Below are positions 6,822 to 54,848 of a stretch of DNA of 64,000 bases, in pieces. Under the pieces are notes generated by a model that had not been told where the DNA came from, searched no databases, and worked only from the letters and a program-made list of their open reading frames with translations. Position 1 is the first letter of the stretch, and every line of letters starts with the position of its first letter. Both the position numbers and the translations under genes were made by a program. Source of the stretch: an uncultured Lentisphaeraceae bacterium (GTDB lineage: Bacteria; Verrucomicrobiota; Kiritimatiellia; RFP12; DVOR01); contig CASEMQ010000007.1 of NCBI GenBank assembly GCA_949289005.1, forward strand, positions 73,295 to 137,294, given 5' to 3'.

Positions 6822-9065
6822 ATGCGCAGACGGGCGTTTTTGAAGGCGATGGGTGCGTGCGTGGCGGGTTTCGCCACGGGCGGCGGGGCATGGGCGATCG
6901 GGCCGATGGAGCGGCGTTTGGCGCCGAGCGAGGCGGTGCCGCCGCCGGGGCGGGGCGCACGGCCCAATGTGATTTTGGTGCTGTGCGACGATTTGGGCTG
7001 GGGCGACTTGGGTGCCTTCTGGCAGAACACGCGCGCGGCGGCCGGCCAGCCGCACATTCACACGCCGTATCTCGACGAGGCGATGCGCCGGGGCGTGATG
7101 CTCACCAACGCCTTCACCACGGCGCCGGTCTGTGCGCCCGCGCGCGCCTCGATGGTCACCGGCAAGCACCAGGGACACTGCAATCTGCGCGACAATATGT
7201 TCGACCGCCCCGTGGACGCGCACATGACCCTGGGCACCGTGATGAAGCGTGCGGGCTACGCCACTTGGCACGTCGGCAAATGGGGCATCGGCGGCGGCTA
7301 CGAGAGTGGCGGGCAGCCCCGCCGCGCGATGGCGTGCGACGCGGGCTTCGATTATTCCTACGGTTATCCCGCGCATGGCCACGGCCATTCCTTTTACCAC
7401 TGGGAACATGCCGATTGGCGCAATTCCAACGCCGGCTCGCCCCTCGTGGAAAACGTCTCCGCCGCCGCCAAGGACGACGCTTTTTACGCAAACCTTTCCG
7501 CCGGCGCCTGCGGTTGGGAGCGCGACACGGACGGCACCTACTGGCGGCGGCTCGTCGCCGACGCCGAGTGCCGCCATTGCTATGACACCGACCTCTTCAC
7601 GGCCAAAATCAAACAGCTCATCCTGGCCCACCAAGAGGCCGGGCGCGACGCGCCTTTCTTCTGCTATGCCTGCTATACCACGAGCCACGGCTCCGGCAAC
7701 ACCCACGGCGACCCCGACATGGCCTCGACGGCCAACTTCCACGTTCCCGGCAACGCCTATCCCGAGGCGGATGCGGCGGACACACAATGGGGCGGCGGCG
7801 TGACGTGGGAGAAGGACGCGCGCGGTTACCTTCCCTTCAAGGCCGTGGACGCCGAGGGCGCCAACACCTCCAACACCTGGATCCACCCCGATTACCAAAG
7901 CCTCGACACCGACTCCAAGCGCCGCTACGCCACCAATATCCGCCGCCTGGACGACGCGCTCGGCGACCTGCTCCGCTTCCTGAAGGTGCGTGGCCTCGAC
8001 CAAAACACCCTCTTCGTCTTCACCTCCGACAATGGCCCCGCGGGCGAGTACCTCACCCCCGCCGGCATCAACTGGGTGGAGAACGCCTTCGATTCCAACG
8101 GCCCCTATCGCGGCATGAAGCGCTGGAGTTACGATGGCGGCCTGCGCGAGCCCACCTTCGCCCTCTGGCCCGGCGTCATCCCCGCATCGGGCGGCGACAC
8201 GCCCCGCGTCTGCGCGGAACCCTTTCAGTTTCCCGCGTGGATGGCCACCTTGGCCGATGTGGCCGGCCTGCCCCAACCGGCCCATTGCGACGGCGTCTCG
8301 CTCCTCCCCGCCCTCACCGGCCAAGGCCGCCAGCTCCCCATGCGCCTCTACGCCGAATACAATGACGGCGGCTCCGGGCAGAACTTCGGCTTCGAGCAGA
8401 TGGTGCGCGACGGCGACTACGTCCTCATCCGCAACAACGGCATCAACGGCACGCGCGAGCTCTACGACGTGGCCGCCGACCCCGAGCAGGCGGACAACCT
8501 CGCCGCCGACCCCGCCCAGGCCGATCGCGTGCGGTGGATGACCGACCTGCTCGTTGCCTGCCGCGTCCCGGTGGCCAAGGTGCCCGACGCCTGCGGCGCG
8601 CCCGCCGCCTACGCGAACAGCCACCCCGGCATCGAGGGTGCGGCAATGCCCGCCACGCCCCTGCGCGGCGACCTGCCGCCCATCGAGGCGCGCCTCTTCC
8701 TGACGGGCGCAGCCGAGTGGCCTTGGGTGCCCAACTTCCGCACGCTCGCCCCCGACGCCGCCTTCCTGGCGCAGACCTTCGCCGCGGTGCGCGAGCGTCT
8801 CCCCGCCGGCTGCGCCTTCGGCCTGGAACTCTCCGGCTGGATCGACGTGCCGGCGGAGGGCGACGTCACCTTTTCCGCCACCGGCGCGGGCGGTTGCCAA
8901 CTGTGGTTGCACGAGGCCCACATCCTGGAATACGAGGCGGGCGACTGTGCCGCAGGCCGTGCCATTACCCTGCGCCTGGCCAAGGGCCGGCACCCGTGGC
9001 GCCTCGCCCTCACCTCCGCCGACGGCCCCGACGGCCTCTGCGCTGTCACCTCCCTGGGCCTCTGA
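6822..9065 (+). CDS. Tat-exported sulfatase (arylsulfatase family) with ~250 aa C-terminal extension
   Basis: Twin-arginine signal MRRRAFLKAMGA...; formylglycine motif CAPARASMVTG; sulfatase core LVLCDDLGWGD, FTSDNGP; the C-terminal third is an additional beta-rich domain. Confidence 0.8.
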   Translation: MRRRAFLKAMGACVAGFATGGGAWAIGPMERRLAPSEAVPPPGRGARPNVILVLCDDLGWGDLGAFWQNTRAAAGQPHIHTPYLDEAMRRGVMLTNAFTTAPVCAPARASMVTGKHQGHCNLRDNMFDRPVDAHMTLGTVMKRAGYATWHVGKWGIGGGYESGGQPRRAMACDAGFDYSYGYPAHGHGHSFYHWEHADWRNSNAGSPLVENVSAAAKDDAFYANLSAGACGWERDTDGTYWRRLVADAECRHCYDTDLFTAKIKQLILAHQEAGRDAPFFCYACYTTSHGSGNTHGDPDMASTANFHVPGNAYPEADAADTQWGGGVTWEKDARGYLPFKAVDAEGANTSNTWIHPDYQSLDTDSKRRYATNIRRLDDALGDLLRFLKVRGLDQNTLFVFTSDNGPAGEYLTPAGINWVENAFDSNGPYRGMKRWSYDGGLREPTFALWPGVIPASGGDTPRVCAEPFQFPAWMATLADVAGLPQPAHCDGVSLLPALTGQGRQLPMRLYAEYNDGGSGQNFGFEQMVRDGDYVLIRNNGINGTRELYDVAADPEQADNLAADPAQADRVRWMTDLLVACRVPVAKVPDACGAPAAYANSHPGIEGAAMPATPLRGDLPPIEARLFLTGAAEWPWVPNFRTLAPDAAFLAQTFAAVRERLPAGCAFGLELSGWIDVPAEGDVTFSATGAGGCQLWLHEAHILEYEAGDCAAGRAITLRLAKGRHPWRLALTSADGPDGLCAVTSLGL

Positions 9066-12599: not shown

Positions 12600-12780
12600 C
12601 CGAACGTCCCGCTTTGGGACACGGCGTGTCGCGACCCGGGATGCGCCGTGTCTCGAGGGGAGGTACGCCGTGTCCCGGAAAATGACCCCGCTCCCTGATT
12701 GAAAAATGCCCTTTTGCCCCCCTCCGGGCCTCTCGCGCTTTCGACAGGTTTTCAACGGGTTTGCGAAAGTTATCGACAGG
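12600..12780 (+). repeat. Dispersed ~190 bp intergenic repeat element, copy 1 (three tandem ~22 nt units at approx 12621..12686, GATTGAAAA box, conserved 3' module GGTTTTCAACGGGTTTGCGAAAGTTATCGACAGG)
   Basis: Alignable by eye to the copies at 32281..32475, 42896..43080 (reverse) and 54510..54700 (reverse); lies about 90 nt upstream of ilvA. Confidence 0.8.
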
Positions 12781-32280: not shown

Positions 32281-32475
32281 CGGACGTTTTCGACAGGCGG
32301 GGCGTTTTGGAACGCGGCGTGTCCCGGGGGGAGAGACGGCGTGTCTCGATGGGAGGTACGGCGCGTCTCGAAAAACGACCCCGCGTATAGATTGAAAACG
32401 TGGTTTTTGGCCTCTGTCGGCCCCGTCCGTTCTCAACAGGTTTTCAACAGGTTTCGCAAAGTTATCGACAAGCCT
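32281..32475 (+). repeat. Dispersed ~190 bp intergenic repeat element, copy 2
   Basis: Same module order as copy 1: three tandem units (cgcggcgtgtcccgg..., acggcgtgtctcgatgggaggt, acggcgcgtctcgaaaaa), GATTGAAAAC box, then 3' module CAACAGGTTTTCAACAGGTTTCGCAAAGTTATCGACAAG. Confidence 0.8.
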
Positions 32476-42895: not shown

Positions 42896-43080
42896 ATGTC
42901 GGGCCTGTCAATAACTTTGCGAAATCCGTTGAAAACCTGTTGAAGGAGGGTAGGGCCGGAGGCGCCCCAAAACAACTTTTTCAATCAGGGAGCGGGGTCG
43001 TTTTTCGAGACACGCCGTATCGCGTCTTGAGACGCGGCGTGTCTCGGCACGAGGTGCGCCGTATCGTTCGCCGGGGTTGC
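42896..43080 (-). repeat. Dispersed ~190 bp intergenic repeat element, copy 3 (reverse orientation)
   Basis: Its reverse complement has the tandem acggcg..gtctcg units, GACCCCGCTCCCTGATTGAAAAA and CAACAGGTTTTCAACGGATTTCGCAAAGTTATTGACAGG. Confidence 0.8.
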
Positions 43081-47242: not shown

Positions 47243-47323
47243 TGGGCCCGGAGGGGGTCGAACCCTCACGCCTGGGGCACAGGAACCTAAATCCTGCGTG
47301 TCTGCCAATTCCACCACGAGCCC
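47243..47323 (-). tRNA. tRNA-Leu (anticodon TAG), class II with long variable arm; CCA not encoded
   Basis: Minus-strand sequence GGGCTCG-TG-GTGGAATTGGCAGACAC-G-CAGGA-TTTAGGT-TCCTG-TGCCCCAGGCGTGA-GGGTTCGACCCCC-TCCGGGCCC-A folds into a cloverleaf with a 7-bp acceptor stem (one G-U pair), 3-bp D stem and TTCGA T-loop. Confidence 0.8.
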
Positions 47324-47409
47324 GTAAAATGCTCGCAGTATAGCACATTCCCCAATCCTTTGCCGCCGCACGCCGATTGCCCAATCGTACGCGGGTCAAG
47401 CTGGCGTTC

Positions 47410-49020
47410 ATGGCCAACCAGGAAAATCTGGCGGAGATGGGCAGGGCTGGGCGGGTCCTTGACACGCTCGCCAAATTGGTACGCGCGCTCGCGGAGGCGC
47501 TCCACGCCGTCAGGCCAAGGCAGGGATTGGATGGCGCGGGCTCGGTGCTTGACGCGTTCCTGAAGGAGACGGCGCCTTCGCAGGGGGCCGAGCGGACGCT
47601 CCGCGAAAGCGGCGTCCCCGTGGACGAAATCAACGAAATGGAAGCGGCGCAAGCCCCGCAAGAGCCCGCGCCGGAAACGTCCGCGCCGGAAGAAAAGCAA
47701 CGGGCGCAGGCCAAACGCCGCGACCTGATGGAGCGCCGCAGAAGGAAGTATTCCACAGAAAGCGTGTGGGATGAGCCAACCGTTACCGTGCGGAGTGTGC
47801 GCAACCCGGACGTCCGCTGGAGCACGGAAGACGTGGGTGATGATGTCTTGAACGCGATGGATATGCTTGCCCAAGGACGGGACACGACTATTCAGAGCAA
47901 CGCGCTGGGCGAGGTCGTCTATCCGTTTGGCAAGTTCGGCAAGGGTGGAAGTGGGTTCTTGCACATTGTCGAGCGGCGCATGGAACAGGGGCATACGCTT
48001 GAGGAGGCTATCGAGATTGCCTTGCGCGTGGGCGAGGCGGCGGCAAGAGGTGAGAAAACTTCTGAACAGGGAAACATTCGTTGGCTTGACCGTAATGGGC
48101 ACAGAGCGGTCGTGGCAATAAATGAGAATGATAAACCGATTATAACTGGGTATGATATTTATCCAAAAGAAAGCGCGGGTGATGAACGGATGCCTATACT
48201 CCCGCCGTCCAACTCCGCACCTATTCCCCCGGGCCGCAAAGAAGAGGTGGTTGCCGCGCTGAAACAGATTGTAGCAAACATCCGTTCGGCCCGTGGTGTG
48301 CGGCACTCGACGGAGGACGTGGGCTCGTCGCGTTTTTCGGAGACGCGGGAGGGGAAGCGGATTGTGGCGGCGCTGGTGGACAACCTGATTGCGCACCAGG
48401 CTGACTTGGCGTTCGGGAACGAGGCGCTGGCGGAGCGTCTGGCGCAGAAGGGGAACGCGGGCGTGGGGAAGTGGAACAAGGTGACGCGGGTCTCGGAGAA
48501 CGGGACGGTGTTGCCGGGGAACGCGGAGGAGCTGGCGCGGGAGGAGGCGTTCAGGGCGTGGCAGTTCGGGCGGCCGGGTGGCGAAGACCTGAAGGGCTTG
48601 GTACGCGCGTGCGGGGGCGCGGCGAACTGGCTAGACGTGGTGGGGACGGCGTACGAGGTGCTGTCGGCGATACGTTCTGGGAACCTGCTCGGTGGGCTAA
48701 ACAAGACGGTGGCGGAACGTTTCGGGAAGAACGAGAAGGAGGCGGTGGGGTGGTACGTGCAGAGGATTGTGTCCGCGCGCGCGACGGACTTTGGGCAGAA
48801 GTGCTACCTGATGGGGCGGAAGTTCGCGACGGATTTGATGCGGGAGGCGAACGCGAGCGCGATTGCGGAGCTGCGCCGTGAGTACAAGGGAAAACTTTCG
48901 GAGGAGCGCGGGAAGACGCGGAAGGCGAAGGAGCGTGCATGTGGGCTTGAGCGGACGGCAGAGCGGCGCGAGGCGAACCTTCGCGCGGCGGAAGCCAGCC
49001 CCATAAGAACGTTCCGGTAG
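47410..49020 (+). CDS. Hypothetical protein, compositionally atypical (low GC), internal duplication
   Basis: ATG at 47410 (a TTG at 47377 is also in frame); GC is visibly lower (about 55%) than its surroundings; two related segments (VRNPDVRWSTEDVGDDV and ARGVRHSTEDVGSSRF); no family recognised. Confidence 0.5.
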   Translation: MANQENLAEMGRAGRVLDTLAKLVRALAEALHAVRPRQGLDGAGSVLDAFLKETAPSQGAERTLRESGVPVDEINEMEAAQAPQEPAPETSAPEEKQRAQAKRRDLMERRRRKYSTESVWDEPTVTVRSVRNPDVRWSTEDVGDDVLNAMDMLAQGRDTTIQSNALGEVVYPFGKFGKGGSGFLHIVERRMEQGHTLEEAIEIALRVGEAAARGEKTSEQGNIRWLDRNGHRAVVAINENDKPIITGYDIYPKESAGDERMPILPPSNSAPIPPGRKEEVVAALKQIVANIRSARGVRHSTEDVGSSRFSETREGKRIVAALVDNLIAHQADLAFGNEALAERLAQKGNAGVGKWNKVTRVSENGTVLPGNAEELAREEAFRAWQFGRPGGEDLKGLVRACGGAANWLDVVGTAYEVLSAIRSGNLLGGLNKTVAERFGKNEKEAVGWYVQRIVSARATDFGQKCYLMGRKFATDLMREANASAIAELRREYKGKLSEERGKTRKAKERACGLERTAERREANLRAAEASPIRTFR

Positions 49021-49107: not shown

Positions 49108-50424
49108 ATGACACAGTTGGAAGCCGCCCGTTCTGGAATTGTCACCGAGGCCATGCGTGCCGTTGCCGCCGACGAGGGGCTGACGGGTGAGGCCGTGTGC
49201 GAGGCGGTGGCCTCCGGGCGTGCCGTCATCCCGCTCAATCCTGCGCATAAGGGGGTGCGGCCGACGGGGGTGGGGCGGATGTTCACCACGAAGATCAACG
49301 CGAACCTGGGGCGTTCGCCCACGCGTTCGGGCAAGGGGGACGAGCTGGACAAGTTGCAGGTGGCGTTGGACGCAGGGGCGCAGTTTGTGATGGATTTGTC
49401 TGTGGGGACGGGCAAGGGCGCGGAGGAGATTCGCGCGGAGTTGCGTGACATCCGGCAGGGCATGCTGGAGCGTTCGCCGGCGCCGTTGGGCACCGTTCCG
49501 GTCTATGAGACGATTTCGCGGCTGGATGGCGAAATTCCGGAGATGGACCCGGCGTATCTGCTGGACGTGATCCGCGAGCAGGCCGAGCAGGGCGTGGACT
49601 TCATGACGTTGCACGCGGGTTTGGTCCGCGCCAATTTGCCGTTGGCCGACGGTCGCAAAATGGGCATTGTCTCGCGCGGCGGCGCCATCATGGCTGAGTG
49701 GATGCGCCGCCACAACGCCGAGAACCCGCTCTATGCCCATTGGGACGAGGTGATGGACATTTTGGCCGAGCACGACGTGACGGTCTCGTTGGGCGATGGC
49801 CTGCGCCCGGGATGCCTGGCGGACGCGGGCGACGATGCGCAGTATGCGGAGCTGGCGGTGCTTGGCGAGCTGGTGCGGCGGTGCCGCGCGCGGGGCGTCC
49901 AGGCGATGGTCGAGGGGCCTGGCCATGTGCCCTTCAACCAAATCCGCGAGCAGATGGAGCGCGAGCAGGAATTGTGCGACGGCGCGCCTTTCTATGTGTT
50001 GGGCCCGATCGTGACGGACATCGCGGCGGGTTACGACCACATCGCCTCGGCCATTGGGGCCACGGCGGCCGCCACCTATGGCGCCTCCTTGCTGTGCTAC
50101 GTAACGCCCGCCGAGCACCTCGGCCTGCCCGACGCCTCGGAGGTTCACCAAGGGTGCGTCGCCCACCTCATCGCCGCCCATGCGGGCGATGTGGCGCGTG
50201 GCTTGCCGGGTGCCCGCGCGCGGGATGACCGCATGGCGCAGGCGCGATATGACTTCGACTGGAAGGCGCAGTTCGAGCAGGCGCTCGACCCTTGCACCGC
50301 GCGTGAGCGGTGGCTGCGCACGCGCGCCGAGAACGGCGCCGCGTTGGACGACGACCATTGCTCGATGTGCGGCAAGGCCTTCTGCGCCGTCCGCACCACC
50401 AAGCGCATGCGCCAGGGTTTATAA
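49108..50424 (+). CDS. thiC: Phosphomethylpyrimidine synthase
   Basis: ATG at 49108 with SD aaggaagga; radical-SAM-like ThiC C-terminal CSMCGKAFC; 438 aa. Confidence 0.85.
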   Translation: MTQLEAARSGIVTEAMRAVAADEGLTGEAVCEAVASGRAVIPLNPAHKGVRPTGVGRMFTTKINANLGRSPTRSGKGDELDKLQVALDAGAQFVMDLSVGTGKGAEEIRAELRDIRQGMLERSPAPLGTVPVYETISRLDGEIPEMDPAYLLDVIREQAEQGVDFMTLHAGLVRANLPLADGRKMGIVSRGGAIMAEWMRRHNAENPLYAHWDEVMDILAEHDVTVSLGDGLRPGCLADAGDDAQYAELAVLGELVRRCRARGVQAMVEGPGHVPFNQIREQMEREQELCDGAPFYVLGPIVTDIAAGYDHIASAIGATAAATYGASLLCYVTPAEHLGLPDASEVHQGCVAHLIAAHAGDVARGLPGARARDDRMAQARYDFDWKAQFEQALDPCTARERWLRTRAENGAALDDDHCSMCGKAFCAVRTTKRMRQGL

Positions 50425-51016: not shown

Positions 51017-54000
51017 TCAGGCGAGGAGGTCCTCGATCTCGGCCATGGTGAGGGAGGAGGCGATGGAGGCGTCGGACGCGTTGACGGTGGCTTCGATGAG
51101 CGCCTGCTTTTTGCGTTGGAGGTCGAGCACTTTTTCCTCGATGGTGTCCTGGGCGATGAGTTTGATGGCCTGGACGGTCTTTTTCTGGCCGATGCGGTGG
51201 GCTCGGTCGGTGGCCTGTTCCTCGGCGGCGGGGTTCCACCAAGGGTCGAAGTGGACGACGGTGTCCGCGCCGGTGAGGTTGAGCCCGGTACCGCCGGCCT
51301 TAAGGGAGATAAGGAAGGCGGGGATGGAGGGGGTTTGGTTGAAGCGGGCGCACTGCCCGAGGCGATCTTTGGTGGCACCGTCCAGATAACAATAGGCGAG
51401 GCCCTCGGCGTCGAGGCGATCGGCGATGAGGCGGAGCATCGAGGTGAATTGCGAGAAGACGAGCAGGCGGTGGCCGCCCGCGATCGTCTCGTCCAGGAGT
51501 TCCATCAACGCGTCCAGTTTGGCGGAGGGCGCCTCGCCGGGGCGCGGGGGGCGATTCTTGATCAGGCGCAGGTCGCAGCAGACTTGCCGTAGGCGCATGA
51601 GTAGGGCCAAGACCTCGAACTTGGACTTCTCAAAGCCTTTTTCGCGCACGAGGCCGCGCATTTTCTCGCGCAGTTCGGCGCGATAGTCCTCGTAGAGGCG
51701 GCGCTGGTCGGGGGTGAGCGCGCAGTAGGTGACGGAGCGGATTTTGTCGGGCAGGTCGTTGGCGACCTCTTTTTTGACGCGGCGCAGGAGGAAGGGGTGG
51801 AGTTTTTCGCGCAGGAGGCGTTGGGCGTTCTCCGCGGCCTGGCCACCCTCGGCGATGGGCATCTCGTAGCGGATTTGGAAATCCTCGTAGGGGCCGAGGT
51901 AGCGCGGCATCAGAAAGTCCATGATGGACCAGAGGTCGGAGACGCCGTTCTCGATGGGCGTGCCGGAGAGGACGAGGCGGGTGTCGGCCACCAAGCGCTT
52001 GACGGCCTGGGCGTTTTGCGTGCGTTGGTTTTTGATGGCCTGCGCCTCGTCGAGCACCGCCACGGAATAACGGCAATCGGCATGGAAGGCGATGTCGCGC
52101 CGGATGAGCGCGTAGCTGGTGATGACGAGGTCGTGATCCGGCACTTGCGCGAAGAGGGGGGCGCGGTCGGGCCCGGAGAGTGTCAGCACCTTTAGCCACG
52201 GTGTGAACTTGGCCGCCTCGCGCCGCCAGTTCTCGACCAACGAGGTGGGGCAGACGATCAGGGCGGGTACGCGGCGGGCATCCGCGCGGCAACGCTCCAG
52301 TTGGAGCCACGTCAGTGTCTGCAAGGTCTTGCCCAGACCCATCTCGTCGGCCAAAATCCCGCAGAAGCCACATTCCTCCAGGAAGCGCAGCCAGTAGACG
52401 CCCTCCTTCTGGTAGGGGCGGAGCGTGTCTTCCAGGCGGCCGAGGGGGACGGGCTCGGGGCGACGGCGACGGTTCTGCCGCTCCGCGCGCGCCCGCCAAT
52501 CGGGCGCCGTCTCGAAGTCGATGCCGTCCAGCCGCTCCAACGCCGCTTGCACGAAGGGCGCGTGCACGGCCTCGACGCGCACCGAGCCCTCCACCGTGCC
52601 GCGCCGCGCCTGGCACGCGGCCAATGTCTCGCGCAACGCGCGGATGGCCCCGATGTCCAGCAGCGCCGTGTGGCCGCCGCAATCGACGAATGCCTCGTGC
52701 GCGGCGAGCGCGCGGTCGACTTCGGCGGGGGAGAGACGCAGGTTGCCGTTGGCCGAGACGTAGTCCGCGGCGACTTCGAAGCCATCCTTGGCATTGCGCA
52801 CGCGCACCACGGGCACGATGACCTCGGCGTTCTCCCAGAAGGTGGCCAAGAGGCCCTTCACCTCCACCTTCCAACCCTCGCGGCGGAGGGCGGTGAGGTG
52901 TTCGCCCAAGAGGTTGCGCACGTTGCGGATGCCTGTGAGCGCGCCTAAATCGTCCCCCCGCGCCGCGGGGAAGCCCATTGCCCGCATCCGCGCCAACGCC
53001 TCCTTCTCGGCGGTCTCGTTGCGGCCGAAGCTGTGGTAGAAATCGTCCGGGTCCGGCAGGGCCACCGTCTCGTGGCCGCCCGCCGGCAACCAGTCCTCGC
53101 CGTAACCCGCGAAGAGCCGGGCCGCCACCGACACCTCAGAACCGTTCAGGACCAATCGGAAACGCGGTTCGGCCGGTGTGACGGAGAAGCAATCCGCCGG
53201 GACGCACCGTTCCGGATCCGGCGGCGCCCATGCCGCCAACTTGGGCACCTCGCGGGTGAGGAAGTCCACCGCCCGTGCCCGCGGCACAGCCTCGGGCTTC
53301 GCGTAGAGCCCCTGGAGCGGCGCGGGCAGGACGTGCGCGAGCCGCCGGGCTTCGCCATGCTCGCCCAGCCAGTAGGCGGCGTGGCCGGCGGCCAGCACCA
53401 CCCCGCCGGGCGGCAATTCCAGCGACACGCGGAGCGCGTCGTTCGCCGGGTCGGCCTCCACCGCCAACGGCGTCTCCAACGGCTCCTTGAGCACGCGCAG
53501 GCGGCGGCGCGTCGCGCCATCGCCCACCCAGCTCCCCGTCCCGCACCGGATCACCGCCAGGAAGTCCGCCGGCGACAACTCCAACGTGTCGCCGAAGGCG
53601 CCCCCCGCGATGTCCTCGAAAATCCCGATCAGCGCGTTGTCCGCCTCCGAGAAGGCGTGGTCGACCGGCGGCAAATCCTGTGGGCGATAGGGCTTGCCCT
53701 CAACGTAGAGGCGCACGCCCACGCGCACGCGGCCGGCGGCGAACTGCCGGGCCGCCTCGGCGGGGAGGAAGACGCGGAGCAAGGCGGGGCGCCCTGTCGG
53801 CGCGCGGCGGATCAGCCCCGTGGCGGCTGCCAGGCGCGCGGCGTGGGCGCGGTCGCTCGCCGCGGCCTGCCGGCGCGCCTCGCCCCCGAAGAGGCGCATG
53901 ACGCCGAGCGCCACCGCGATGACGTGCTCGCAGAGCAGGCCGCGGTCGCGGTTGGTCGCGCAAGGGCAATGCCCTTCCACCAAGCCATTCTTGAGCATCG

Positions 54001-54493
54001 TGAAGGTCGCCAGGATGGGCGCCCCGCCGCTCAGCACGTAACCCTTGCCCGTGGGGTAGGCGAAGGCCAGGCGCGACACCGCCCCGCGCCGCACGAGCTC
54101 TTCCGCCCGCGCCAAGAGTTGCGGCCCCGCCCAACGCGCGATCTCCAGGCGCGTGGGGGCGCGCTCCGCCGCGAAAAGCGTCTCTTCCGGCGTGTCGCCG
54201 CCGTGATCGTGCGCCCATTGCAACCCCACCGCGACCGCGTGGCGGCAGACTTTGCCGCCCTTTGCCGCGCCGCATGGGCACAGTACCTCCACCGCGCGCC
54301 CCTCACGCACGCGCAACCGCGTGACCAACCGCGACGCCCCCATCCGCACCGAGCCCGCCAAAAGTTCCCCTTGCGCCCGCACGCCCTGCACGGCGCCGGA
54401 TGCCTGCAACTTCGCACCCTCCGCAAGCACGTCCGAGGGCGCCCATCTCATCACCTGTCCACGCGACAAATCCATGTCGGGAAAGTTTACCAT
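51017..54493 (-). CDS. SNF2-family helicase with N-terminal SWIM zinc finger
   Basis: SWIM CPCGAAKGGKVCRHAVAV; SNF2 N-domain LADEMGLGKT, DEAQAIKN; helicase-C block near the C-terminus. Start set at ATG 54493 because the longer ORF to 54769 would read through the repeat element. Confidence 0.7.
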   Translation of the reverse strand: MVNFPDMDLSRGQVMRWAPSDVLAEGAKLQASGAVQGVRAQGELLAGSVRMGASRLVTRLRVREGRAVEVLCPCGAAKGGKVCRHAVAVGLQWAHDHGGDTPEETLFAAERAPTRLEIARWAGPQLLARAEELVRRGAVSRLAFAYPTGKGYVLSGGAPILATFTMLKNGLVEGHCPCATNRDRGLLCEHVIAVALGVMRLFGGEARRQAAASDRAHAARLAAATGLIRRAPTGRPALLRVFLPAEAARQFAAGRVRVGVRLYVEGKPYRPQDLPPVDHAFSEADNALIGIFEDIAGGAFGDTLELSPADFLAVIRCGTGSWVGDGATRRRLRVLKEPLETPLAVEADPANDALRVSLELPPGGVVLAAGHAAYWLGEHGEARRLAHVLPAPLQGLYAKPEAVPRARAVDFLTREVPKLAAWAPPDPERCVPADCFSVTPAEPRFRLVLNGSEVSVAARLFAGYGEDWLPAGGHETVALPDPDDFYHSFGRNETAEKEALARMRAMGFPAARGDDLGALTGIRNVRNLLGEHLTALRREGWKVEVKGLLATFWENAEVIVPVVRVRNAKDGFEVAADYVSANGNLRLSPAEVDRALAAHEAFVDCGGHTALLDIGAIRALRETLAACQARRGTVEGSVRVEAVHAPFVQAALERLDGIDFETAPDWRARAERQNRRRRPEPVPLGRLEDTLRPYQKEGVYWLRFLEECGFCGILADEMGLGKTLQTLTWLQLERCRADARRVPALIVCPTSLVENWRREAAKFTPWLKVLTLSGPDRAPLFAQVPDHDLVITSYALIRRDIAFHADCRYSVAVLDEAQAIKNQRTQNAQAVKRLVADTRLVLSGTPIENGVSDLWSIMDFLMPRYLGPYEDFQIRYEMPIAEGGQAAENAQRLLREKLHPFLLRRVKKEVANDLPDKIRSVTYCALTPDQRRLYEDYRAELREKMRGLVREKGFEKSKFEVLALLMRLRQVCCDLRLIKNRPPRPGEAPSAKLDALMELLDETIAGGHRLLVFSQFTSMLRLIADRLDAEGLAYCYLDGATKDRLGQCARFNQTPSIPAFLISLKAGGTGLNLTGADTVVHFDPWWNPAAEEQATDRAHRIGQKKTVQAIKLIAQDTIEEKVLDLQRKKQALIEATVNASDASIASSLTMAEIEDLLA

Positions 54494-54509
54494 ATTTCCA
54501 TCCCATCCA

Positions 54510-54700
54510 GACCTGTCGAAAACTTTGCGAAACCTGTTGAAAACCTGTTGAGACCGCCTCGCCCCGGAGGCACCCGAAATCCGGCTTTTCAATCTATACG
54601 CGGGGTCATTTTCCGGGATGCGCCGTATCTCCCCCCGAGGCACGCCGCATCCCGCATCGAGGCACGCCGCGTCCCGGGACGCGGCGGCCGCGGGGCTTTC
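54510..54700 (-). repeat. Dispersed ~190 bp intergenic repeat element, copy 4 (reverse orientation), ending 17 nt upstream of the helicase start
   Basis: Its reverse complement has three tandem units (ggacgcggcgtgcctcgatgcgg, gatgcggcgtgcctcggggggagat, acggcgcatcccggaaaa), GACCCCGCGTATAGATTGAAAAG and CAACAGGTTTTCAACAGGTTTCGCAAAGTTTTCGACAGG. Confidence 0.8.
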
Positions 54701-54848
54701 TCCCTGCGCACACAGCCCCTGGACAGGGCTGCGACTTTTGGTATCCGCCCGGTTTTTTACGCTTGCCATCGCGTGGGGGAAGGTCTATAATAGCCACCTG
54801 TAACGTACGACTAGGGCTTGTGCCCAAGACAAGGAAAGGACAAGACAC

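Follow-up and report, generated by a model that had tools for sequence, protein, structure and literature searches.

We analysed a 64,000-nucleotide stretch of DNA from an uncultured Lentisphaeraceae bacterium (hereafter the window; positions 73,295 to 137,294 of contig CASEMQ010000007.1, GenBank assembly GCA_949289005.1), focusing on a gene that lies between tRNA-Leu(TAG) and thiC. Its open reading frame (ORF) begins with an ATG at 47410, with an alternative TTG start at 47377, and is intact to the stop codon at 49018-49020; the product, P0001, is a protein of 536 amino acids. In all probability, this gene derives from a polyvalent protein, a type of multi-effector protein delivered by phages and conjugative elements along with their DNA (Iyer et al. 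2017, J Bacteriol; PMC5512222), and it has kept a PBECR1 module while losing, through a derived deletion, a module B and an ADP-ribosyltransferase (ART) module. The neighbours of the locus are glnS, dapA, dapB, folK, tRNA-Leu, thiC, a GNAT gene and a SNF2 gene. ARAGORN, Rfam and the ORF call confirmed that an intact ORF stands beside tRNA-Leu, as a first-pass annotation made from the sequence alone had stated.

Modular architecture and a predicted RNase

Direct family searches of the window protein against Pfam, PHROGs, NCBIfam and PADLOC returned nothing at E <= 1, and when the protein or profiles A1 and A2 were searched against PDB sequences, the only matches were weak and implausible. The first-pass annotation had been unable to assign the protein to any family, which held for these direct searches but not for transitive and profile searches. 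A word-indexed homology search returned only nine proteins, which share pieces of the window protein in differing orders; the protein is therefore modular. An exhaustive search of 1.84 billion cluster representatives yielded 107 relatives. When each module was searched again separately, module A was found in 88 of the 107, including giant proteins of 3,000-4,800 amino acids, and module C in 30 relatives, always toward the C-terminus. The leader (amino acids 1-130, searched with phmmer) was found in only 9 proteins: P0004-8, P0011 and P0043 carry it at the N-terminus, and in P0010 it lies inside the protein, after an HExxH motif. The order within the window protein is leader (amino acids 1 to about 112), junction, module A (to amino acid 305) and module C (amino acids 306-528). 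Pfam domains across the relatives include ART-PolyVal (matched in P0003-5, P0010 and P0011), LPD1, LPD3, LPD38, Kinase-PolyVal, PBECR5, MuF_C, SNF2 and N6 methylase. The window allele itself comprises one recognised domain and two modules, the leader and module C, that have no Pfam entry.

The motifs to which the first-pass annotation had drawn attention are all present: RWSTEDVG at amino acids 136-143, RHSTEDVG at 298-305, GKGGSGFLHIVERRM at 177-191 and a C-terminus rich in Lys, Arg and Glu. Its two related internal segments are indeed copies of a 14-nt DNA repeat (47824-47837 and 48310-48323, 93% identical), and we identify them as the seams between modules where alleles differ. The peptide at junction 1 reads KYSTESV...VRNPDVRWSTEDVG. 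Junction 2 is the site at which a zincin+LPD1 module (module D) of a sister allele, L003, is absent from the window allele, with a blastn break at 48310-48317. A junction motif, [KR][FYW][SH][ILVTM], was observed 69 times against 18 expected, an approximately four-fold enrichment, and occurs at 24% of the N-terminal boundaries of module A compared with a background of 3%.

Module A is predicted to be a divergent PBECR1 domain (PF18809; phage Barnase-EndoU-ColicinE5/D-RelE-like predicted RNase) and hence a metal-independent RNase. PF18809 was matched by 23 of 28 module A homologues; the best of these scored 38.2 bits and was the sole member above the cutoff of 27.6, with more distant homologues at 19-38 bits and the closest relatives of the window copy at 13-15 bits. 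Alignment A1, which comprises 28 module A sequences, contains five invariant columns (Gly52, His55, Arg60, Thr116 and Gly117). All five residues are retained in the window copy, where the protein equivalents include His185 (47962-47964), Arg190 (47977-47979) and Thr246-Gly247 (48145-48150). Comparison by hhalign of A4, the window subfamily, with A5, the PF18809-matching subfamily, gave a probability of 99.3% (E = 3.3e-20, 110 columns) and brought the His and Thr-Gly motifs of the two into register. In addition, phmmer with the window protein alone reached PF18809-matching members at E < 1e-3 among 1.84 billion sequences.

The predicted structure of module A is consistent with this assignment. 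The AlphaFold2 (AF2) model (pLDDT 84, pTM 0.78) contains helices at residues 52-62 and 67-83, strands at 85-90, 93-98, 101-107 and 113-120, and a C-terminal helix at 147-174. Helix 52-62, which follows the Gly-rich loop, carries the His and Arg, and the final strand (113-120) carries the Thr. This layout matches the published definition of PBECR domains, which places a His in the helix and a Thr in the last strand (PMC5512222). Given the PBECR1 assignment, the Gly-rich loop FGKFGKGGSGFLHIVERRMEQGH would be the loop and catalytic helix of the predicted RNase. The AT-rich run of the gene codes for the last strands of the predicted RNase core, conserved Thr246 included. Further features set the window subfamily apart: a helix and hairpin added at the N-terminus, an Arg that is invariant at the fifth position past the His, and a long helix at the C-terminus. 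Searches of BFVD matched best to large proteins of uncultured phages, several of them annotated as polyvalent. Among module A relatives, P0022 is encoded on a phage-like contig beside a T7_gp14-like gene, and a second relative is chromosomal; none was found in INPHARED phages or PLSDB plasmids by tblastn, or in IMG/VR with profile A4.

Foldseek searches of the PDB ranked an entry from a contact-dependent growth inhibition (CDI) system first (7m5f_C, probability 0.98), followed by RelE/ParE/HigB toxins, with low TM-scores of 0.2-0.44 to these CDI/RelE-family structures. The BECR fold is typical of CDI and RelE-type toxins, and one could thus picture the gene as a polymorphic toxin or a toxin-antitoxin RNase whose BECR domain is neutralised by an adjacent immunity or antitoxin protein. 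We consider this extremely improbable. No small ORF and no immunity or antitoxin gene was found in the 86 bp that separate the ORF from tRNA-Leu or in the 87 bp that separate it from thiC, and these gaps leave too little room for one. In the 536-amino-acid protein we found neither a domain for secretion or trafficking nor a hydrophobic segment, and the RNase module sits in the middle of the protein rather than at its C-terminus. Finally, the relatives are polyvalent proteins with ART-PolyVal, LPD1/3/38, Kinase-PolyVal or MuF_C. The lack of a hydrophobic segment also ruled out a secreted or membrane protein.

The composition of the gene follows its modules. The first-pass annotation had assigned clearly lower GC and a different codon usage to the whole ORF; this is correct for the middle module (Table 1), but not for the gene as a whole, whose ends are host-like. 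The mean GC of the window is 0.666 and that of the entire ORF is 0.63, and the GC content at third codon positions (GC3) in neighbouring genes is 0.81-0.88. The dip in GC at 47800..48299 is significant (z = -3.0), and just 0.16% of the 500-bp windows in the 64 kb are equally low. Low GC is the mark of the central cassette and not of the whole gene: central cassettes have a foreign composition, and both gene ends have that of the host.

Module C matched no Pfam or PDB entry, and its AF2 model is helical with low confidence (pLDDT 56). When prokaryotic genomes were scanned, one per species, matches to module C were confined to three Kiritimatiellaeota metagenome-assembled genomes (MAGs), one Lentisphaeraceae genome and Ca. 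Spyradenecus; profile A2 found no copy in IMG/VR or in JGI metagenomes, and an exact 30-mer was likewise absent from JGI metagenomes. Full-length relatives run 240-330 amino acids past the end of the window protein, and the basic C-terminus of the latter is the start of that longer coiled coil. The 3' truncation point is common to the window allele and L014. On the 5' side, a tblastn match of P0010 residues 83-409 begins at 47392, six codons before the ATG. Similarity upstream of the ATG, together with last codons that have no counterpart elsewhere (Table 1), shows that the gene is truncated at both ends relative to its nearest full-length form.

Table 1. Coordinates of the gene, its modules and its nearest neighbours in the window
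Feature	Coordinates	Strand	Description	Basis
tRNA-Leu(TAG)	47243..47323	-	5' end toward the gene; part of near-invariant left flank	ARAGORN, Rfam
Left boundary of variable segment	47392..47409	+	in-frame codons before the ATG, still like the interior of P0010 (residue 83 onward)	
P0001 ORF	47410..49020	+	probable reduced allele of a polyvalent-protein gene, 536 amino acids	
Leader	47410..47745	+	helical, then acidic/Pro-rich	
Leader (composition)	47410..47796	+	GC 0.66, GC3 0.77	
Junction region 1	47746..47838	+	KYSTESVWDE...TVRSVRNPDVRWSTEDVG	blastn segment breaks, 13-bp overlap
Module A, middle (composition)	47797..48317	+	GC 0.56, GC3 0.60	
PBECR1-type BECR-fold core	47884..48177	+	predicted metal-independent endoRNase; low-GC cassette	
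Helix and junction 2	48238..48324	+	C-terminal helix of module A, then RHSTEDVG (48301-48324)	
Module C (composition)	48318..49020	+	GC 0.67, GC3 0.855	
Module C	48325..48993	+	all-helical, then charged coiled coil; RFSETxxG...W.DVLGT.YE...ARAT.LG.K.YLMGR.FA	alignment A2
Last 8 codons (SPIRTFR) and stop	48994..49020	+	no counterpart at other loci (L005, L009/P0010)	L005 homology ends at 48995
thiC	49108..50424	+	housekeeping gene on the right, 87 bp past the ORF stop	ThiC_Rad_SAM match on 98% identical L014

An Rfam scan detected no thiamine pyrophosphate (TPP) riboswitch or other RNA near the gene apart from tRNA-Leu, and we dismissed minus-strand ORFs that overlap the gene as by-products of high GC. 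Two genes downstream lies a 1250-amino-acid SNF2-family helicase (51017-54769, minus strand), which is kept in L014 and appears unrelated to the locus; by eye, its N-terminal half contains two Cys/His clusters that look SWIM-like.

Allelic variation at the site

Two conspecific contigs, L003 and L014, have flanks 97.7-98.3% identical to the window and the same gene order: glnS, dapA, dapB, folK, tRNA-Leu and the gene, followed in L014 by thiC, GNAT and SNF2. The L003 allele consists of leader, B, ART-PolyVal, junction, PBECR1, junction, module D, junction and C, where module D carries HEWFHALEH and LPD1 (35 bits, cutoff 27). The L014 allele has this layout without module D. The window allele lacks both B+ART and D, and its leader, PBECR1 and C form one open frame. 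The points at which the alleles break are the junctions, namely the 9-bp GTGCGCAAC, which codes for VRN, and the ACxGAGGA of the STE codons. The copy of GTGCGCAAC at 47797-47805 is the crossover point at which B+ART is missing compared with L003, L014 and L018-L025. From these alignments, the window allele appears to have lost B+ART in frame by deletion between two GTGCGCAAC copies at module junctions.

An exact look-up of FolK returned 21 contigs. We inspected 10 of these, and all 10 carried the gene at the site, most of them ending inside it; no empty site was seen among the 10 conspecific contigs inspected (of 21 found). Wherever an inspected FolK-linked allele could be followed beyond the leader, B+ART came next, which indicates that the window allele is the derived, rarer form. 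The common form comprises leader, B, ART-PolyVal, PBECR1, an optional zincin/LPD1 module and module C. The zincin-like metallopeptidase, absent from the window allele, is represented by HEWFHALEH with LPD1 in L003 and by HELAHN in P0010. Because sister alleles hold ART-PolyVal, PBECR1 and HExxH/LPD1, the locus qualifies as polyvalent, with the window allele as a reduced derivative. Separately, the L014 contig carries CAG in place of the TAG stop (around 7430-7450, equivalent to 49018-49020 in the window), so that the frame enters thiC; its gene call is a 943-amino-acid fusion protein with thiC.

These observations bear on the origin of the gene. The first-pass annotation had described an acquired orphan and had invoked the tRNA gene as a landing site for acquired DNA, which would make the ORF an orphan toxin or anti-defence gene newly inserted beside tRNA-Leu as cargo of a tRNA-targeted genomic island. 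The adjacent tRNA and the foreign composition of the middle segment fit such an event. Against it, no integrase was found within 10 kb upstream or 5 kb downstream of the gene, repeats of tRNA-Leu were limited to chance-level 12-mers, with nothing att-like, and the gene is found 5' of the tRNA; the first-pass annotation had itself pointed out all three. Moreover, the site is occupied in every conspecific contig inspected, the gene ends are host-like and the gene has 107 relatives, which is hardly an orphan. Insertion as island cargo is thus largely refuted, and we regard it as very improbable. A further option raised at first pass, a polyvalent-protein domain from a phage or conjugative element, proved to be the right one: the middle module is predicted to be a divergent PBECR1, and sisters carry ART-PolyVal and zincin+LPD1.

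An orthologue occupies the same position within the species, but not beyond it: homologues in more distant Kiritimatiellota sit at other chromosomal sites, and the gene is thus not a housekeeping gene. All six chromosomal sites, including that in the window, have only housekeeping or metabolic neighbours. No phage or conjugation genes were found in the annotated flanks of the window locus, and no integrase, phage or conjugation genes in those of the five other sites with relatives. On another Kiritimatiellota contig (L004, 3476-3859 and 3905-5236), a polyvalent gene is cut just ahead of module C by a fragment that, by eye, resembles a DDE transposase. A second Kiritimatiellota clade (GC about 0.61) has a conserved chromosomal site at which the gene varies from 1014 to 1616 amino acids in length (L007 1847-6697 and L011 7118-11650); in L007, the 5' end of the gene is replaced, with a Pyr_redox_2-like N-terminus following a thioredoxin gene, which suggests that L007 is rearranged at the polyvalent gene.

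Scored against intact ART copies (L005 and L001), the ART module appears to have been damaged by five different deletions in five alleles. Three of these shift the frame: an 8-bp deletion just past the VYHG motif in L018, a 23-bp deletion in L003 and an 83-bp deletion in L014. The other two preserve it: a 48-bp deletion between exact 12-bp repeats in L019, and the removal of the entire B+ART, about 820-880 bp, in the window. As L018, L019 and L021 are otherwise identical across 870 bp, the ART deletions are recent and independent. No lesions were seen in leader, PBECR1 or C among the alleles compared. That two of five lesions preserve the frame suggests selection for keeping the downstream modules. 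Together, these data suggest selection against an active ART at this site; two lineages would have discarded ART without shifting the frame of the downstream modules.

The gene also differs sharply from its surroundings in divergence. Between 46600 and 47391, the window and L003 differ by one substitution and one 1-base indel; from 47392, 17 substitutions and a 15-bp indel fall in the next 418 bp. Synonymous divergence (dS) is 0.13-0.17 in the gene, compared with 0.008-0.042 in glnS, dapA, dapB and folK. This sharp jump, together with the high dS, indicates that old alleles persist in this gene, an island prone to recombination, amid younger flanking sequence. Relative to the sister alleles, the ratio of nonsynonymous to synonymous divergence (dN/dS) is 0.08 for the leader, 0.21 for module A/PBECR1 and 0.12 for module C. 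In addition, a yjeF-like neighbour (equivalent to L003 3926-5458) has a dS of 0.17 against L003, as high as the polyvalent gene, and may be a second recombination tract of the region.

A paralogous polyvalent locus, from the same or a closely related population, is present on L005 (2625-4556; ENA ERZ16268131 scaffold_13892). There, an intact ART is joined straight to module C, which is 95.8% identical to the window C. At its 3' end the gene continues in frame into a sequence resembling a lipoprotein signal (MRKIFRSGLALLLAAFAGGGC). A locus of this type could be a donor in gene conversion. Directly upstream of the L005 gene (2155-2321), as upstream of glnS in the window, we noted a dispersed intergenic repeat of about 140-170 nt with the core CCTGTCGATAACTTTGCGAAACCTGTTGAAAACCTGTTGA ... 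TTTTCAATC ... GGGGTCATTTTCCGAGACACGCCG. Window copies lie at 42902-43017 and 54512-54653 on the plus strand and at 32357-32474 and 12644-12780 on the minus strand, with further copies at L003 5488-5625 and L014 409-546; pairwise identity is 74-83%. Three copies lie at or beside other 500-bp GC minima of the window. The repeat has no Rfam match and may be a promoter or leader element, a small RNA or a miniature inverted-repeat transposable element (MITE).

Origin and fate of the gene

Our results suggest the following course of events. The ancestor would have been a packaged or injected effector array, which its own metallopeptidase would have cut into modules at the aromatic-Ser-Thr-Glu junctions. 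Once in a chromosome, an ADP-ribosyltransferase may have been harmful or useless, leading to its repeated loss, and the remainder could be either kept as a host-side weapon against invaders or heading to decay. The window protein, if made, would have a single recognisable activity, the predicted metal-independent cleavage of RNA by His185, Arg190 and Thr246.

Several points weigh against this reading. The comparison sequences are metagenome assemblies, in which many contigs break inside the gene and from which the indels were read. The window copy itself gave no match to PF18809 even at E = 10, and the family assignment of the window module rests on homologues, profile comparison and predicted structure. 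By a rough estimate from covered lengths, the chance of the lesions clustering in ART is about 0.004-0.04, a modest statistical case. The low dN/dS could stem from divergence or gene conversion by functional paralogues, such as that at the L005 locus, and not from local selection. Finally, the frameshifts in three sister alleles (L003, L014 and L018) would end translation ahead of PBECR1 and C; with the stop loss in L014, they make the locus look dispensable and possibly decaying.

The gene might accordingly be a non-functional remnant, a captured polyvalent gene eroding by microhomology-mediated deletions, of which the window allele is a decay intermediate that is in frame by chance. We take this possibility seriously but do not think it probable. 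Besides the segregating frameshifts and the missing stop codon, a remnant would account for the truncation at both the 5' and the 3' end relative to P0010 and L009, for the short direct repeats or microhomology at the ends of all deletions, and for a window in which no metallopeptidase, delivery domain or partner gene was found. However, the 536-amino-acid frame is open and keeps all of the invariant PBECR1 residues, dN/dS is low across all three parts of the gene, frameshifted alleles are free of stops downstream of the lesion for about 1.9-2.8 kb, and the frame survives two of the ART lesions, those of 48 bp and of about 820-880 bp. Very probably, the gene is derived from a polyvalent-protein gene whose PBECR1 module was carried through a derived B+ART deletion; today it may be either a retained, ART-less RNase effector or a late-stage remnant.

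A bolder proposal is that solitary polyvalent-type genes are retained in Kiritimatiellota/Lentisphaerota chromosomes to serve the host as a multi-effector system. Under this proposal, the leader and module C, with its long helical tail, may form a constant, lineage-specific scaffold, into which foreign, lower-GC cassettes (PBECR1, ART and zincin/LPD1) may be swapped, or from which they may be deleted, at the aromatic-Ser-Thr-Glu junctions. The five independent ART knock-outs may reflect ongoing selection that tunes the cassette set rather than decay, and the junction motif may serve both as a recombination point and as a site of proteolytic processing. We judge this combination of scaffold and cassettes, ART tuning and dual-role junctions unlikely, though worth stating.

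Comparison with known systems

Almost all knowledge of polyvalent proteins comes from comparing genomes, and very little work has addressed the copies that reside in hosts. The locus described here provides a natural allele series within one species (intact-looking, frameshifted, trimmed in frame and fully ART-less) in which module content shifts by short-repeat deletions at module junctions, and which suggests selective loss of ART once the gene is chromosomal. The window allele also offers a compact 536-amino-acid construct with which to ask whether PBECR1 is an RNase and which RNA is cut.

Iyer, Burroughs, Anand, de Souza and Aravind (2017; PMC5512222) described, as a third context for polyvalent proteins, solitary host-resident copies with no phage or type IV secretion system (T4SS) genes nearby. 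The gene belongs to this host-resident class, as a strain-variable chromosomal allele with no mobile-element genes nearby. It resembles the class in that PBECR1, ART-PolyVal, zincin HExxH with LPD1 and MuF_C occur across the locus and its relatives, and in that unrelated modules are joined in one polypeptide encoded by a solitary chromosomal gene. In contrast, the window allele retains a single recognisable effector domain, beside a leader and module C that are absent from Pfam, and has no close phage or plasmid relative in INPHARED, PLSDB or IMG/VR. A zincin-like metallopeptidase (MPTase) for processing is common, though not universal, in polyvalent proteins (PMC5512222). Module A shares with PF18809 a predicted core in which a His-bearing helix leads into four strands, the last of which carries the Thr, but scores against the 27.6-bit cutoff of that family are 0-15 bits for the window copy and the relatives nearest to it.

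The closest parallel for the allele series is jhp1044, a Helicobacter prophage polyvalent protein with mosaic orthologues (PMC5512222). In both cases, orthologues at one locus vary by strain through gain, loss and rearrangement of modules, PBECR included; the window locus differs in lying outside a prophage and in varying mostly by reduction, through microhomology deletions that fall repeatedly on ART. CDI and RelE/ParE/HigB toxins are the best solved-structure matches to the predicted fold of module A, but the window gene has neither an immunity or antitoxin partner nor a CdiA-type delivery region. Polyvalent proteins, PBECR domains, mosaic orthologues and host-resident copies were all described by Iyer et al. 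(2017); new here are the divergent PBECR1 subfamily, the leader, a module C restricted to Kiritimatiellota/Lentisphaerota, the junction motif and the population series of ART lesions. These findings do not overturn current ideas; they extend a known class into a poorly studied phylum.

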